Virus record (IMG/VR): IMGVR_UViG_2541047851_000007 | From: a virus | Lineage: Duplodnaviria; Heunggongvirae; Uroviricota; Caudoviricetes | Direction: 5' to 3' (one strand) | Length of the DNA: 41,096 nucleotides | Shown: piece by piece, positions 23,113 to 37,601 of the stretch | Numbering within the stretch: the stretch's first letter is position 1 | Layout of the letters: every line of letters starts with the position of its first letter | Notes under the pieces: generated by a model | The model's input: only the letters and a program-made list of their open reading frames with translations | The model's database searches: none | Told to the model about the DNA's origin: nothing | Program-made: the position numbers and the translations under genes

Positions 23113-23454
23113 TTACTCCTTAGAGCCACCAAACTTGTTACCGATTACTCGCATTGCAGCCCCACGAATAGCATCGACACCGATCAGCCCAACACCACCA
23201 CCAATGGCAACAGAAAGCGATTTAGGCCATCCAACATACTCAAGAGCGGATGCAAAGGTCAGCGTCAGAGCACCACAGAGCAAAATCTCAAGCGTTTTTC
23301 GTTTCCAGCCGCCGCCACCGCCAAAATAGGCAATGCGCAAACCAGCCATAACAATTGACATAACCACTGCGCCCAACGGCGTATCTCCACGCCACCAACT
23401 TTGTAAGAGTTCCAGTAAGTCAGGCCAGGAATGAGGAGCATTGTGCATTTTCAT
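23113..23454 (-). CDS. Holin, lambda S-like (dual-start MKM)
   Basis: Start MKMHNAPHSWPDLL parallels lambda S MKMPEKHDLL; GGAGG Shine-Dalgarno lies inside the annotated N-terminal extension. Confidence 0.7.
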   Translation of the reverse strand: MKMHNAPHSWPDLLELLQSWWRGDTPLGAVVMSIVMAGLRIAYFGGGGGWKRKTLEILLCGALTLTFASALEYVGWPKSLSVAIGGGVGLIGVDAIRGAAMRVIGNKFGGSKE

Positions 23455-23555
23455 ACTTCCCACCTCCGCCATTACGGGGTGTTGTTGAAAGGCGGGCCCT
23501 GCGTATACGCCCGTAGGATTGGGTTATGAGCCGTCCTTCGGTGGGCCCTGAATAC

Positions 23556-27936: not shown

Positions 27937-27980
27937 TACAAGAATACCTGTTGACTTAATTACAGGTTTACTTGTACTTT
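27937..27980 (+). promoter_or_regulatory. Second operator pair with rightward promoter-like element
   Basis: TACAAGAATACCTGTT (27937-27952) and TACAGGTTTACTTGTA (27961-27976, identical to 27132-27147); TTGACT (27951-27956) - 18 bp - TACTTT. Confidence 0.5.
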
Positions 27981-27989
27981 TAATCCAAC

Positions 27990-28180
27990 GAAGTAATCGC
28001 TCTTTAACAAACAGAACCGCGTGACAGGTAAGCCGCAGTGCTCCTGGCAAAACGAAATAGCACCCGATGGGATCGAGGTAAGCGCCGAGTCCGTATGCGT
28101 ACGGTAAGCGTAGAGGACAACACCGCGATGAACTGATAAGTCACGCAAGTTGAAACGCCCCGATGATGGGGCGCTTAGTT
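27990..28180 (+). ncRNA. Candidate structured non-coding RNA / leader element
   Basis: No credible ORF; closing stem GCGTGAC (28019-28025) with GTCACGC (28140-28146); internal hairpin CCGTA-TGCG-TACGG (28090-28103); terminal hairpin CGCCCC-GATGAT-GGGGCG (28156-28173) then U-rich tail. Confidence 0.25.
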
Positions 28181-28224
28181 CCTTTAACTCTGGGTGACCG
28201 GAAGGGTACCCATGCTTAAAGAAA

Positions 28225-28794
28225 TTACTGGTTGTAAGGATCGTAATCCGTGATTGCCTTCCCCGGATTTTCATCTTCAGAAGGCAGTCGGGCCTCTAAA
28301 GCATTTCGGTTGAACAGATAGGAAGCCCTACAGTACGAACAAACCATATTAACGGCTCGCCCAAGGCCTGGCTTAGTAACCAGTCCTTCCGCTTGCAATA
28401 TAGATTTTCTCTTTTGCTCGTAGCAATTGGGACAAATATAAACCGGAGATTGGTCAGCATCTGCAGAAAGCTTGCTGCGATAGACCAGAGTCCCCCGCAT
28501 AGGCTGGTAAAGTTCATAGCTCGCCGCTTCAGCGGCCCAGTTCTCTTGCTTTACTTTCTCATTTTCCAGTTCAACAATTTTCTCCTTAGCCGCAATCAGC
28601 AGCTCCTGAAGCGACATTTGCTGCATCTGAACATCCATTAGCTTATCGAGTAAGATGTGCGTCTTCTCTTTAACTGCATAGTCTACAGTCAGATTCTGAA
28701 TCTCTCTTGCTGCTCCAACCGCGCTTTTAATTGCTCCTCCCACGCCGGATAACGATTCAGTTATCCGGGAAAGAATTCCTTTTTCTTCAGACAT
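28225..28794 (-). CDS. Coiled-coil / zinc-ribbon protein, unknown function (immunity-region moron)
   Basis: 189 aa; helical N-terminus; CPNC...x25...CSYC at C-terminus; convergent with cI, divergent from early operon; AT-rich. Confidence 0.55.
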   Translation of the reverse strand: MSEEKGILSRITESLSGVGGAIKSAVGAAREIQNLTVDYAVKEKTHILLDKLMDVQMQQMSLQELLIAAKEKIVELENEKVKQENWAAEAASYELYQPMRGTLVYRSKLSADADQSPVYICPNCYEQKRKSILQAEGLVTKPGLGRAVNMVCSYCRASYLFNRNALEARLPSEDENPGKAITDYDPYNQ

Positions 28795-31935: not shown

Positions 31936-31956
31936 AAATATTCATCCCCCAGCTGC

Positions 31957-32625
31957 GTGCTGGGGGATCTCATGAGGGAAAGAATAATGTCACAGCCCGT
32001 ATTAACTAATTACCTTAAAACTCAAATCATCAATAACGCACTTGAGAAAGCGGGTATCCCCAAACGTAAATCAGCACTACGAGCTGCTCGTGTTGAATGG
32101 GCCGAACGTGTTCGGCTTGCAGCTATCGGGGGCGTAGAGAAAGAAGCTGAAATATTAAAAAATATAAAAAAAATAGAAACACTGGTATCAAAATTCCCCG
32201 AAGCATTAAAAACCGCCAATAACATTATCAGGGAAGAGTGTTACATGTGTCTGAATCTGGCAGGTTCTCGGGTTACCGTCTATTTCAACGGTAACTACCG
32301 AGGATATGAATCAGGGTCACCAGACCATATTCACAAAATCGCGCCGGGGGAATTTACCCTTCTGGCAAATGACCCTCTAGTTACAGAGTTTTACGGGTTT
32401 GATACACTTTATGAGCAGATACAGAGCGATGAGTCAGACATTCGACAGAATGTCAGCGCTGCACTCAGTAAAGTGCGCACAGTTAAGCGCCTGCTGGAAG
32501 AGTGGCCTGAAGCTAAAGAACTTCTGCCAGCCGATGCACCATCTGCTCCGCTTCCGCCAGCTATACGACGCGAAACTCTCAACGAAATGATCGGCCTCCC
32601 TTCTGACGAAGGGGTAGATGCTTAA
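31957..32625 (+). CDS. Hypothetical early protein (likely start at 31987)
   Basis: 222 aa ORF; internal Met with RBS GAGGGAAAG. Confidence 0.45.
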   Translation: MLGDLMRERIMSQPVLTNYLKTQIINNALEKAGIPKRKSALRAARVEWAERVRLAAIGGVEKEAEILKNIKKIETLVSKFPEALKTANNIIREECYMCLNLAGSRVTVYFNGNYRGYESGSPDHIHKIAPGEFTLLANDPLVTEFYGFDTLYEQIQSDESDIRQNVSAALSKVRTVKRLLEEWPEAKELLPADAPSAPLPPAIRRETLNEMIGLPSDEGVDA

Positions 32626-32692
32626 TATTTCTTATAACAAAGGCTGGCTTAAGAAAATAGTTATCCAAACCAGCCTACCGCAATACTAAAAA

Positions 32693-32962
32693 TTAAAATT
32701 CATTGAATTTAAAAAGACATTTCCCTATTGGATTGCCATAGTCTCTACATACCGAAATGCTGTCCCATACAGGCTGAGCCAAACACCCAAGAAAGAACCC
32801 AATAAGCGCAAAAATTATAATTTTGGGAAGAACACGATCCTTAGGACCTTCTTCACGTTCGAGCCATGCGCCACCAGCCCGAACTATTCTCCCTAAAATA
32901 TAAAGAATGGGGAAAGCAATAATACCTATCAATGAAAGTATTCCGATACCAAAGCTAAACAC
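32693..32962 (-). CDS. Small two-helix membrane protein, opposite-strand moron
   Basis: 89 aa; two hydrophobic helices; GTG start with GGAG RBS; very AT-rich; antisense to flanking operon. Confidence 0.45.
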   Translation of the reverse strand: MFSFGIGILSLIGIIAFPILYILGRIVRAGGAWLEREEGPKDRVLPKIIIFALIGFFLGCLAQPVWDSISVCRDYGNPIGKCLFKFNEF

Positions 32963-33018
32963 CGCCGTCTCCTTGTTTATTTACACCTACATAACCATAT
33001 ATCACACAAGGTTATTTT

Positions 33019-35082
33019 ATGTCCAATATACTATGGGGTGACCTAGAAACCTATTGCGAAATCCCTATTACGAACGGTACCCATGCGTATGCCGAAGGCG
33101 TTGAAGTGATGCTGTTCGCATGGGCTATCAACGACGAGCCCGTAAACGTGTGGGATATCACTGCCGGTGGTGGTATTCCACACGGCTTATACGAAGCAAT
33201 CGCAGCCCCTGAAACCCTGCTTTATTTTCATAACTCTCACTTCGACCGCACCGTCCTGCGTTATGCAATGCCGCGCCTGGCACCGCCAGTCGAACGTTGG
33301 CGCGACACAATGGTGCAGGCGCTGGCGCACGGTCTCCCGGGGTCTCTGGGGGAACTCTGCGAAGTACTAGGCGTCCCGCAAGACAAAGCGAAGGACAAAG
33401 AAGGTAAAGCGCTGATCCAGCTGTTCTGTAAGCCACGCCCGAAAAACAGCAAACTGCGCCGGGCCACCAGCAAAACCCACCCGGAAGAATGGCGGCGCTT
33501 TGTTGCTTACGCCGGACTGGATATCGAGGCAATGCGCGAAGTCTATAAACGTCTGCCGAAGTGGAATTATCAGGGGACAGAACTGGCGCTCTGGCATCGT
33601 GATCAGCAGATCAACGACCGGGGCGTCTGCATGGACATTCAACTCGCGCGCGCTGCGATCGAAGCGGTAGACCAGGAGCAAAAGCGCCTGGCAAAGCGTA
33701 CACAGGAAATGACTGATGGCGAAGTGCAGGCAGCAACACAACGGGACGCGTTGATTAAGCACATCGTTGAATCCTACGGTGTGGAGCTACCAGACATGCA
33801 ACGCAGTACTCTGGAACGTCGTATAGCCGACCCCGATTTACCATCTGCCGTGAAAGAACTGCTGGCTATCCGCCTGCAGGCCAGTACTACCAGCACCAGT
33901 AAATACAAGGCACTGATGAAAGGCGTAAGCCACGACGGGCGCTTACGCGGTACGCTACAGTTCTGCGGGGCGTCACGTACCGGTCGTTGGGCCGGACGGC
34001 TATTCCAGCCCCAGAACCTTCCCCGCCCTTCACTAAAACAGGAACAAATAGACGAAGGCATCGAAGCACTGAAAGCCGGATGTGCAGACCTGCTGTTTGA
34101 CAATATCATGGAACTAACCAGTTCAGCGTTACGTGGCTGCATTATCGCGCCAACAGGCAAAAAACTGGTGGTAAGTGACTTGTCGAACATTGAAGGCCGT
34201 ATGCTGGCATGGCTGGCGGGAGAAGAATGGAAACTGAATGCATTCAGAGAGTACGACGCCGGAACGGGTCCGGACTTATATAAACTGGCGTATGCAAAAG
34301 CTTTCGATATTGCACCAGATGATGTTGATAAACACATGCGTCAGATCGGTAAAGTCATGGAACTCGGTCTGGGTTATGGAGGTGGTGTATCGGCTTTCAT
34401 CACTTTTGCTCTGGTTTACGGTCTCGATCTCGACGAGCTGGCGAACGCCGCACTGCCAAACATTCCCCGCGATGTTATCCGCGAGGCGAAAAGCTGGTAC
34501 AACGAATCGGTTAAACGTAAGTCGACCTTTGGCCTGTCCGAGCGTGTATTCATCGCATGTGACTCGCTCAAGCGCCTGTGGCGCAGGGCGCACCCGGCGA
34601 CCTGCGATTTCTGGTACGAACTGGAGCGCACCGTCCGCACTGCAATCGCCACACCGCAAAAAACATTGTATTGCGGTTATCTTAAAATCCGCCGCGATGG
34701 CGCGTGGCTGCGCATACAGCTACCATCCGGACGCGCTGTATGCTACCCCTCTCCGGTTATCGAAAAAGGGAATATCACCTATATGGGTGTTAACTCTTAT
34801 TCGCGTAAATGGCAACGACTCAAAACCTACGGCGGAAAGCTGGTAGAGAACGTCACCCAGGCGGCCGCCCGCGACGTTCTGGCCGGAAACATGCCGCTTA
34901 TCGAAGATGCCGGTTACAGCATTGTGCTGACGGTACACGACGAGGTGATCACCGAAGCACCTGACACAGAAGATTTCAACGATAAAGCGCTTTCCGCGCT
35001 TCTCTCCACTAACCCCGAATGGGCGCCCGATATCCCACTGAACGCTGGCGGTTTTGAGGCGTACCACTACCGTAAGGATTAA
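33019..35082 (+). CDS. Family A DNA polymerase with 3'-5' exonuclease domain
   Basis: 687 aa; exo motif DLET; motif [14 protein letters not shown]; motif [17 protein letters not shown]; motif C LTVHDEV. Confidence 0.85.
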
Positions 35083-36283: not shown

Positions 36284-37284
36284 ACCCTAACGCAGCACAA
36301 TGGCTGCGTAACCTTATTGCTGCAGGTCATATCGCCCCGGGTGAAGTTGATGAAAGGAGTATCGAAGATGTCGCACCAGACGACTTGCGCGGATTCACAC
36401 AGTGCCATTTCTTCGCCGGGATCGGCGTCTGGTCTTATGCTCTGCGTCTGGCCGGATGGCCGGATAACAAACCGGTCTGGACAGGAAGTTGCCCGTGCCA
36501 GCCTTTCAGCTCGGCTGGTAAAGGCGCTGGGTTTGATGACGAGCGGCACCTATGGCCAGCACTATTCCACCTCATCAGCGAGCGACGCCCTAAGCTGGTA
36601 TTTGGCGAACAGGTTGCGGGAGTCAATGCCTGGTTCGATCTTGTACAAACTGACGTGGAAGCAGTGGACTACGCCTTTGGGCTTGTCCCGTTTCCGGCTG
36701 CGGGCGTCGGTGCCCCGCATATCCGAGATAGAGCGTATTGGGTGGCCGACGCCAGCGGCGAGCGATCACAGCGGTGGCGAAAGCGCCTCAATAGCATTGA
36801 GGAAGATGTCTGGAGATCGTCGACCGTCCGGCAACACGCTACACAGCTCCCTGCGGAATTTTGCTCACCTAGCGGGGTGGTACACCCCAACCTGCAACAC
36901 AAACCCACAGCCGGAGACAAAACGCGGTCTAGAAACCTTAGCGGGACTATCCAGATTAGCGGGATGGCCGACAGTGACGACGATCGACAACAACCAAGTT
37001 CGTGCCGAGGGCGCAGCGGCCAATCATACCGAACGGGGAACGACCCTCGGCGGCGCTGCGAGAATCTGCGGCCCAATACGATTAACGGCTGCTGGGATGG
37101 TGCTGACTGGCTCCTCTGCCGGGATGGTCGCTGGCGGCCAGTTGAATCCGGCACATGCCCGTTGGCTAATGGGATTACCTCCAGAGTGGGACGACTGCGC
37201 GCCTACGGCAACGCGATAGTCGCACCAGCTGCCGCAACATTCATCCGCTCGTTTATGGAATGCGCAGGATACGACCTTATTTAA
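36256..37284 (+). CDS. DNA cytosine-5 methyltransferase
   Basis: 342 aa; motif I FFAGIGV; motif IV PCQPFS; motif X RAYGNAIV; GTG start. Confidence 0.8.
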
Positions 37285-37601
37285 TGCCACTCACATCTGG
37301 CATGATACCGTCCAGAAGGTAATTGCTTATATACAACGGAGCCGCCCATGGCATAAGTATAAGCATGAAGTTTTGTCCAGAAGTCCCCATAAACTAGTAT
37401 TGGGGCTAAAAATTTTGGATCGCTAACCATAGATGTAGCAGGAAGCTCGAAACCTTTAGAAAGAATGTTTACCAGTGAAGGGTAATTTTCAAAATCAGTG
37501 CTATTCCCGCCCACCTCTAAAGCATCCAGTTCAAAGTCGAGCACTCCACCATTTTTGTAATACTCCGGAACAGTTAACCCTGATGTTAACAAAGTAGCCA
37601 T
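37281..37601 (-). CDS. Hypothetical protein, opposite-strand AT-rich moron
   Basis: 106 aa; AGGAGG RBS; AT-rich relative to flanking GC-rich genes. Confidence 0.5.
   Translation of the reverse strand: MATLLTSGLTVPEYYKNGGVLDFELDALEVGGNSTDFENYPSLVNILSKGFELPATSMVSDPKFLAPILVYGDFWTKLHAYTYAMGGSVVYKQLPSGRYHARCEWH

Follow-up and report, generated by a model that had tools for sequence, protein, structure and literature searches.

A small opposite-strand gene in the replication module

The stretch of DNA analysed here, called the window throughout (41,096 nucleotides; IMG/VR record IMGVR_UViG_2541047851_000007, Caudoviricetes), comes from an Escherichia coli prophage integrated at yfhL, with genes for a tyrosine integrase, a LexA-like repressor, a VapE primase, the antiterminator Q, a lambda-S-type holin and structural proteins. 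Between two genes of the replication module it carries a minus-strand open reading frame (ORF) for a protein of 89 amino acids (aa), labelled by PGAP as hypothetical protein WP_000490741.1. Judged from its sequence and its homologues, this ORF is a genuine gene for a small two-helix inner-membrane protein. It is almost certainly a real accessory membrane-protein cassette, and we propose that it is a prophage moron which could serve in superinfection exclusion. The principal features of the locus are the following.

32693..32962, minus strand: coding sequence of the small membrane protein (89 aa, GTG start), from the ORF call, hydropathy, homologues and an AlphaFold2 model
32969..32974, minus strand: Shine-Dalgarno sequence AAGGAG, 6 nt 5' of the GTG
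32602..33018, unstranded: exchangeable cassette, delimited by pairwise blastn breakpoints against E. coli relatives
31957..32625, plus strand: Nmad5-family gene (PF18757, E = 3.6e-56), convergent with the 89-aa gene
33019..35082, plus strand: family-A DNA polymerase gene (polA), the conserved anchor of the slot, divergent from the 89-aa gene

The preliminary description of this DNA, made from its letters and a list of ORFs, had placed here an opposite-strand ORF among replication genes, with a GTG start and a GGAG-type ribosome-binding site (RBS), encoding a two-helix membrane protein within a very AT-rich stretch. All of this was borne out. Both flanking genes are on the plus strand, AAGGAG stands at a suitable place, and the Kyte-Doolittle profile (19 residues) has two maxima, of 2.44 (residues 5-24) and 2.40 (residues 44-62). 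The GC content of the ORF is 0.393 (0.30 at third codon positions), versus 0.508 for the window, 0.544 for polA and 0.460 for the Nmad5 gene, and its AT-richness is matched by only 1.6% of 270-bp windows. The start codons of the 89-aa gene and polA are 56 bp apart. Upstream of the Nmad5 gene are genes for an Enc34-type SSB and a DUF2800 PD-(D/E)XK nuclease. Of 5426 complete E. coli genomes, 34 contain the 393-bp interval between the Nmad5 gene and polA, with an identity of at least 99.5%.

The protein belongs to a widespread family

A word-indexed protein search returned copies at 98% identity or more only, and thereby suggested an orphan. This was overturned by an exhaustive HMMER search of 1.84 billion representatives (clusters defined at 50% identity), which found 118 cluster representatives at E<=1e-3 and 36 at E<=1e-10. 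Conservation of the ORF, one of the two points on which the preliminary description had made its case depend, is what these clusters reveal. The homologues come from Gamma-, Beta- and Epsilonproteobacteria; they are mostly 80-100 aa long, and the match is near end-to-end in the large majority. The nearest members match the 89-aa protein at E = 8e-20 or weaker, with up to 51% identity. A tblastn search of plasmids gave one match, in Sulfuricurvum.

The consensus of a 79-member alignment reads MxxFSxG, a first transmembrane (TM) helix, R...AW..R...PK[DE]RV, a second TM helix with GFxxGS..Q..WD, and C...G.P...C. Two residues, G59 and C72, are invariant; four others (G7, G55, Q63 and C82) show conservation in at least 90% of the members. 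All family traits are present in the 89-aa protein: the length of ~85-95 aa, the MxxFSxG start, two TM helices, the AW..R...PK[DE]RV loop, GxxxG-S..Q in the second helix and a C-x9-C tail. The GTG start is validated by the alignment, since 68 of the 79 members begin at the same MxxFSxG column. In most homologues (13 other loci were read) AGGAG, GGAG or GGAGG precedes the ATG by 5-9 nt; two or three are without such a site. Variation of the protein within E. coli is limited to few substitutions (V71A, F84L and one C82F), too few to give power to the ratio of non-synonymous to synonymous substitution rates (dN/dS).

None of Pfam, NCBIfam, PHROG and PADLOC-DB v2 has a family for the 89-aa protein (cut-off E<=0.1 for Pfam and PADLOC). 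When all 79 aligned members were compared with Pfam and NCBIfam, scattered sub-threshold matches to unrelated membrane families were obtained, and nothing consistent. A sequence-profile search of the PDB gave nothing below E = 0.2, and Foldseek with the AlphaFold2 model gave nothing below E = 1 in the PDB and BFVD. Nothing specific was found in the literature under the accessions, the names of related phages or the module. A neighbour-joining tree of the family has a star-like shape and gives no answer on whether the members located upstream of polA form one clade; the E. coli and Serratia proteins stand nearer the lambdoid-prophage versions than the Morganella/Proteus pair. Such a tree does not discriminate between repeated acquisition and a long residence in which evolution was fast. 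The definition of this conserved 2-TM/Cx9C family and of an exchangeable slot upstream of polA is what is added here; the preliminary description had missed both and was incomplete in this respect.

Topology and predicted structure

The segments of the protein are assigned as follows.

About residues 5-24: TM1, predicted
Residues 25-47: basic cytoplasmic loop with R..AW..R...PK[DE]RV
About residues 48-66: TM2, carrying G55xxxG59 and Q63
C-terminal part: outward-facing tail, a helix-turn-helix with C72 and C82 (Cx9C)

Across the family the mean number of Lys plus Arg residues is 5.1 in the loop, 0.2 in the N-terminus before TM1 and 2.4 in the C-terminal tail, and the N-terminus is without the positively charged n-region of a signal peptide. 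Because the positive-inside rule is this clear, the predicted topology is N-out/C-out, with the loop in the cytoplasm and the Cx9C pair in the oxidising periplasm. AlphaFold2, run with the family alignment, gave a model with a predicted local distance difference test score (pLDDT) of 90.3 and helices at residues 8-34, 44-74 and 79-88. The modelled fold is a TM hairpin whose second helix runs into a short helix-turn-helix bearing C72 and C82. Two Cys residues are found in the tail of essentially every family member, and a C72-C82 disulfide probably staples the periplasmic tail. The GxxxG motif of helix 2 suggests that helices pack against each other, either within copies of the protein itself or together with a partner.

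An exchangeable slot upstream of polA

The limits of the cassette were obtained by pairwise blastn. With relatives that carry the Nmad5 gene and a 229-aa gene, homology ends at 32601 and restarts at 32992. With relatives that lack Nmad5, it ends at the stop codon of the SSB gene (31935/6) and restarts exactly at the polA ATG (33019). As the breakpoints flank the 89-aa gene together with its RBS and its 3' hairpin, these constitute a discrete unit of ~0.4 kb, which is not present in vB_EcoM-606R2 nor in most E. coli relatives. A larger variable region, 31936-33018, includes Nmad5 and is lacking in some relatives.

A polA gene of this type is carried by 159 of the 5426 complete E. coli genomes. 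In all six E. coli relatives sampled, an opposite-strand low-GC gene is located just upstream of polA, and four unrelated kinds of cassette were seen in this slot: one for the 89-aa 2-TM protein, two for 3-TM proteins (209 aa in one, 199 aa in the other) and one for a soluble protein of 229 aa. The 209-aa protein corresponds to phrog_10579 and is also encoded by the isolated phages vB_EcoM-606R2, 689R2 and 611R5. In Morganella CYJ1 and Serratia oryzae the slot contains 3-TM proteins of 210-215 aa; in Pectobacterium and Trabulsiella, an opposite-strand gene of ~60 aa with a less depressed GC content; and in Serratia H1w and Limnobaculum, a gap of ~100 bp without any ORF of at least 30 aa. The GC content of the 199-215-aa 3-TM cassettes is 0.30-0.35. 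The alternative cassettes listed here gave no match in Pfam or PADLOC.

L035:2325-2954, opposite strand: alternative cassette, 209 aa
L037:2375-2974, opposite strand: alternative cassette, 199 aa
L038:2250-2939, opposite strand: alternative cassette, 229 aa
L006:3332-3979, opposite strand: alternative cassette, 3-TM
L007:3341-3973, opposite strand: alternative cassette, 3-TM
L004:3006-3191, opposite strand: alternative cassette, ~60 aa

From these sequence comparisons, the slot immediately upstream of polA is an exchangeable cassette site in one family of temperate phages of Enterobacterales, integrated at yfhL. Homologues of the 89-aa protein occupy the same opposite-strand position in Serratia nevei (50% identity), Morganella morganii (38%) and Proteus/Providencia (35%), divergent from polA in every case and with 17-56 bp between the two start codons. 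In the same modules polA is 73-77% identical, DUF2800 64-65% and SSB about 60%. With 35-50% identity versus 73-77% for polA, the small protein is the fastest-evolving one of the module.

The Serratia nevei element (L013-L016) is a prophage remnant of ~7 kb, in which only the last 83 residues of DUF2800 are left, SSB is split and, at two of the four loci, polA is broken too. The small gene is intact in this remnant and identical on 13 contigs, which hints at selection in the host.

Nmad5 is variable cargo too: it is not found in several E. coli relatives and lies elsewhere in the Morganella prophage (L023:11680-12294). According to a conference summary of 2025 (PMC12908700), a phage Nmad5 gene is where mutations that give escape from the Tmn defence system are located.

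Expression signals

Two further features concern transcription of the small gene.

32632..32676, minus strand: terminator-like hairpin (hairpin 32641-32676), stem AGGCUGGUUUGG / UUAAGCCAGCCU then UUUGUUAU
32996..33030, minus strand: weak candidate promoter elements from sequence comparison of 11 slots, not established

The hairpin begins 16 nt past the stop codon, has a minimum free energy of -23.2 kcal/mol (z = -3.1), and only one of 200 shuffled sequences folds as well. Only on the minus strand does UUUGUUAU come after it. As the plus strand has no U-tract after the hairpin, read-through towards polA is not obviously blocked. A simple consensus terminator scan skips this hairpin, the loop of which exceeds 8 nt. 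The Morganella homologue has a canonical terminator at the equivalent place, and the Serratia homologue a GC-rich hairpin. The 89-aa gene is thus predicted to have its own terminator.

On the promoter side, one candidate combines TGGACA (33020-25, the reverse complement of polA ATG-TCC-A), an 18-nt spacer and TGaTATATG (32996-33003). A second candidate is TATATT (33025-30), the reverse complement of the polA Asn-Ile codons AAT ATA. This hexamer is exact in all E. coli cassettes, in Proteus and in L007, degenerate in Morganella, L003 and L004, and absent from Serratia L013. In Serratia, TGGACA-17-TAGATT passes the promoter scan as a 9/12 site. A promoter embedded in the polA start and shared by the slot cassettes is possible, and is not established.

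An observation on polA itself is that its start, ATG TCC AAT ATA (with the rare Ile codon ATA), reads TATATTGGACAT on the opposite strand. There, TATATTGGACAT gives a -10-like TATATT and a -35-like TGGACA facing the slot occupant (33019-33030; equivalents in L001, L003-L007, L013, L023, L031 and L035-L038).

Contexts of the family elsewhere

Outside the polA slot, a solitary opposite-strand member is found between the terminase and lysis genes of lambdoid prophages, in Pantoea ananatis and in a second genome where a Kiwa system lies 4 kb away. In the Pseudomonas syringae group (236 contigs), the member is located at a prophage end by an integrase fragment, or among insertion sequence (IS) elements. 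An Undibacterium prophage carries it as an opposite-strand gene of the early region, Roseateles in a small integrase islet, and the Sulfuricurvum plasmid as a solitary opposite-strand gene. The IMG/VR viral contigs include seven with the E. coli version and seven with the Pseudomonas version.

At one locus a member has an RTX locus with a type I secretion system (T1SS) on its upstream side and a Lamassu LmuA-like gene directly downstream. A Polaromonas member follows an RTX/SPM protein, and RES and AHH toxin genes are found beside a family member. In the polA modules of Morganella and Proteus, SSB and the small gene have a gene for a SIR2 protein of 507 aa between them (PDC-S25, E = 2e-159; L023:7294-8817), and in relatives a TIR protein of 253 aa (PDC-S35, E = 1e-108) is encoded just after polA (L001:8129-8890). 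Taken together, these gene contexts associate the family with prophages and defence islands. No partner gene conserved across the contexts was seen, which indicates that the protein probably acts alone or with a host component.

Two recurrent neighbours may be coincidences. Giant proteins with RTX/SPM domains occur in two unrelated contigs (L019:1-160 and L043:4123-7968), and YciI-family proteins in Serratia (L013:9541-9837) and on the Sulfuricurvum plasmid (L022:6375-6662).

A prophage moron with a possible role in superinfection exclusion

Set against the Juhala/Hendrix definition of a moron, as summarised in PMC3594210, the 89-aa gene is extra DNA relative to close relatives, deviates in GC content (1.6th percentile of 270-bp windows) and has its own predicted terminator. 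The preliminary description had spoken of the hallmarks of an independently expressed moron, and had offered a toxin, an exclusion factor or a holin-like protein as its product. In favour of a moron are the sharp breakpoints of the extra DNA, the deviant GC content, the opposite strand, the 3' hairpin and the homologues at classic moron positions. The sequence evidence supports the view that the gene is a prophage moron, i.e. a self-contained, horizontally exchanged cassette of ~0.4 kb. Among the three products, an exclusion factor is plausible by analogy; the other two fared less well, as discussed below.

Superinfection exclusion at the inner membrane is the function that we prefer, tentatively, on grounds of analogy. 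A role in conflict with other mobile elements is suggested by the exchange of unrelated cassettes, the rapid divergence of the protein, the candidate defence neighbours and its retention in a decaying prophage. For a protein of this kind, small, solitary, located in the inner membrane and with a structured hairpin in the periplasm, the best-precedented mechanism is then the exclusion of entering DNA, by comparison with T4 Imm and HK97 gp15. In such a scheme, the gene would be transcribed on its own from the repressed prophage, and early-operon transcription running antisense through it would damp its expression in lytic growth. The short ends of the protein would face the periplasm and its basic loop the cytoplasm, and the GxxxG helix would pack with itself or with a partner. 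The protein alone, at the inner membrane, would exclude superinfecting phages, which is the least supported step. Its periplasmic hairpin could interfere with passage of the DNA or with the ejection machinery, as do T4 Imm and HK97 gp15, to which it is unrelated.

HK97 gp15 is expressed from the prophage and blocks genome entry (PMC3594210). It is likewise a small inner-membrane protein, encoded in an inserted unit of low GC content in which a terminator directly follows the gene (GC content of gene 15 0.33 versus 0.50 for its flanks; the terminator is annotated), and homologues of this YebO-related protein also occur outside prophages. However, gp15 has 62 aa, one hydrophobic helix and no Cys, and is encoded by a forward gene in the tail operon, whereas the 89-aa protein has two helices and a Cx9C tail and its gene is reversed in the replication module. 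Comparison of the family profile with gp15 by hhalign gave a probability of 1.2%, i.e. no homology. T4 Imm, annotated as a membrane protein leaving superinfecting DNA in the periplasm, resembles the 89-aa protein in its size (83 aa), its two hydrophobic segments and the position of its gene adjoining the DNA polymerase gene 43. It differs in having no Cys, in lying on the same strand as its neighbours, and in being an early gene of a lytic phage that is not expressed from a prophage. Here too the hhalign probability was 1.2%, without homology, and that for T4 Imm.1 was also within 0.2-1.2%. The T4 genes imm and imm.1 (L044:2374-3014), both annotated as encoding membrane proteins, are directly beside gene 43, a positional parallel without sequence relationship.

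For the arrangement of the gene, the 'reverse moron' gp23 of HK97 offers another comparison: it is an opposite-strand gene for 86 aa, with its own annotated terminator, inside a phage operon. Its product differs in having no hydrophobic segment, and the hhalign probability was 0.2%. For the slot, the closest likeness is with defence hotspots of prophages and satellites, such as those of P2 and P4. In both cases a fixed position holds mutually exclusive, unrelated low-GC cargo in otherwise near-identical elements, and here PADLOC candidates (SIR2 PDC-S25 and TIR PDC-S35) lie in adjacent positions. The differences are that no cassette of the polA slot matches a known defence model, that the slot belongs to a replication module and that the phage type is another one.

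Several points weigh against superinfection exclusion by an independently expressed moron. Neither hhalign with known exclusion proteins nor the PADLOC models gave any homology, and a tblastn search of 50,697 GenBank phage records gave no match to the 89-aa protein. Some members are outside prophages, on the Sulfuricurvum plasmid, twice beside giant RTX/SPM proteins, and among IS elements. The association with defence genes is circumstantial. The strong conservation of the cytoplasmic loop, AW..R...PK[DE]RV, points to a partner inside the cell or close to the membrane, which a simple periplasmic block of injection does not require. As for expression, no sigma-70 consensus promoter passes the scan in 32400-33300. 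The first 20 codons of polA have a synonymous diversity of 0.41 versus about 0.49 (n = 10 codons), with no clear excess of conservation.

A broader proposal can be made, which we regard as doubtful in its entirety and put forward as speculation. The 2-TM/Cx9C proteins could be a new, widespread single-gene class of membrane-embedded anti-phage exclusion factors in Proteobacteria, and at the same time the slot upstream of polA could be an undescribed defence hotspot, whose at least five unrelated cassettes (89-aa 2-TM, ~200-215-aa 3-TM, 229-aa soluble and ~60-aa soluble proteins) would all be uncharacterised defence or exclusion genes, possibly served by one shared promoter in the polA start.

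Alternative explanations

The protein could be a lysogenic-conversion factor that tunes a host membrane protein, for instance a sensor kinase, a transporter or an envelope enzyme, with secondary effects on phages. We consider this unlikely and nevertheless worth keeping in mind. Small membrane regulators are known, MgrB and prophage proteins of the DicB type among them, and MgrB also has a periplasmic pair of Cys. The 89-aa family has conserved residues on both sides of the membrane and a GxxxG packing motif, it extends to chromosomal islets and a plasmid, and the gene has been retained in a decayed prophage, all of which would suit such a regulator. DicB, a small cryptic-prophage protein, is reported to work through inner-membrane proteins (PMC6832061). 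What speaks against regulation of a host protein is that the query has no Pfam match at E<=0.1 and the 79 members none that is consistent, and that no conserved neighbouring host gene indicates a target. Moreover, the rapid divergence (35-50% identity versus 73-77% for polA) and the exchange with unrelated cassettes fit a conflict function better.

A membrane-damaging toxin appears quite improbable. It could be an abortive infection (Abi) effector, a type-I-toxin-like gene checked by antisense early-operon RNA, or a holin-like pore. Compatible with this are the small size of the protein, its two hydrophobic helices, the GxxxG motif with which it might form oligomers, its coding antisense to a long transcript, and the toxins or defence effectors among the neighbours of the family. 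However, the gene is solitary in every context, without a sensor or antitoxin partner, and the early operon which would provide the antisense RNA is repressed in the lysogen, so that a toxin would go unchecked. The toxin option of the preliminary description is likewise unlikely for a gene that stands alone and has stayed intact in the decayed Serratia remnant. Type I toxins usually have fewer than 60 aa and one helix, and a conserved, disulfide-stapled periplasmic domain together with a conserved cytoplasmic loop is atypical of them. No match to a Hok/Gef-type or other toxin family was found in Pfam or NCBIfam, and an Rfam scan of 32300-33300 found no RNA family at E<=1, hence no antitoxin RNA.

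The holin-like option was rejected. The phage has its own lambda-S-type holin, a Phage_holin_3_1 gene at 23113-23472 downstream of Q (E = 1e-27), the 89-aa gene is ~9 kb away from it in the replication module, and no holin family matches the protein at E<=0.1. A reading of the region as a non-coding RNA was also rejected; the Rfam scan found no family there.

Less probable still is an orphan immunity protein, shielding the inner membrane from a membrane-acting bacteriocin or from a contact-dependent or secreted toxin of competitors. Small inner-membrane proteins are numerous among the immunity proteins to pore-forming colicins and microcins, and members of the family lie beside RES and AHH toxin genes and, on two unrelated contigs, by RTX/T1SS loci. 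Yet a toxin gene is not nearby in most contexts, including the polA slot in four genera, the lambdoid prophages and the Pseudomonas prophage end, and RES and AHH toxins act in the cytoplasm, against which a membrane immunity protein is not expected. A chance ORF in an AT-rich spacer or replication-origin-like region, which the AT-rich surroundings between replication genes and the lack of a consensus promoter might suggest, can be dismissed in view of the 118 clusters that share length, start position, RBSs and invariant residues and of the high-confidence structure model.

If superinfection exclusion by the 89-aa protein is confirmed, an unannotated family common in Morganella, Proteus, Pseudomonas syringae and E. 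coli prophages would receive a name and a phenotype. It would represent a sequence-novel, single-protein form of superinfection exclusion, for which the Cx9C hairpin, the GxxxG motif and the cytoplasmic loop provide handles on the mechanism. If expression of the protein is without effect, the gene would be an ordinary hypothetical accessory gene of a prophage. Independently of the 89-aa gene, the slot upstream of polA amounts to a compact natural library of cargo genes that are unrelated to one another and uncharacterised, and sites of this sort have yielded new defence systems elsewhere.

Other observations in the window

A second opposite-strand gene, at 37281-37601 on the minus strand, encodes a soluble protein of 106 aa (phrog_28127, no Pfam match). 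It sits between the genes for a DNA cytosine methyltransferase and a SNF2 helicase in the plus-strand operon, and this position is conserved in Morganella (L023:4118-4438) and Serratia (L013:4330-4650). Finally, two minus-strand ORFs without a Pfam match (104 aa and 189 aa) are found at 27960-28794, in the interval from the repressor gene to the point where the plus-strand early operon starts; phage vB_EcoM-606R2 has a 189-aa ORF in the equivalent place (L001:1562-2131).

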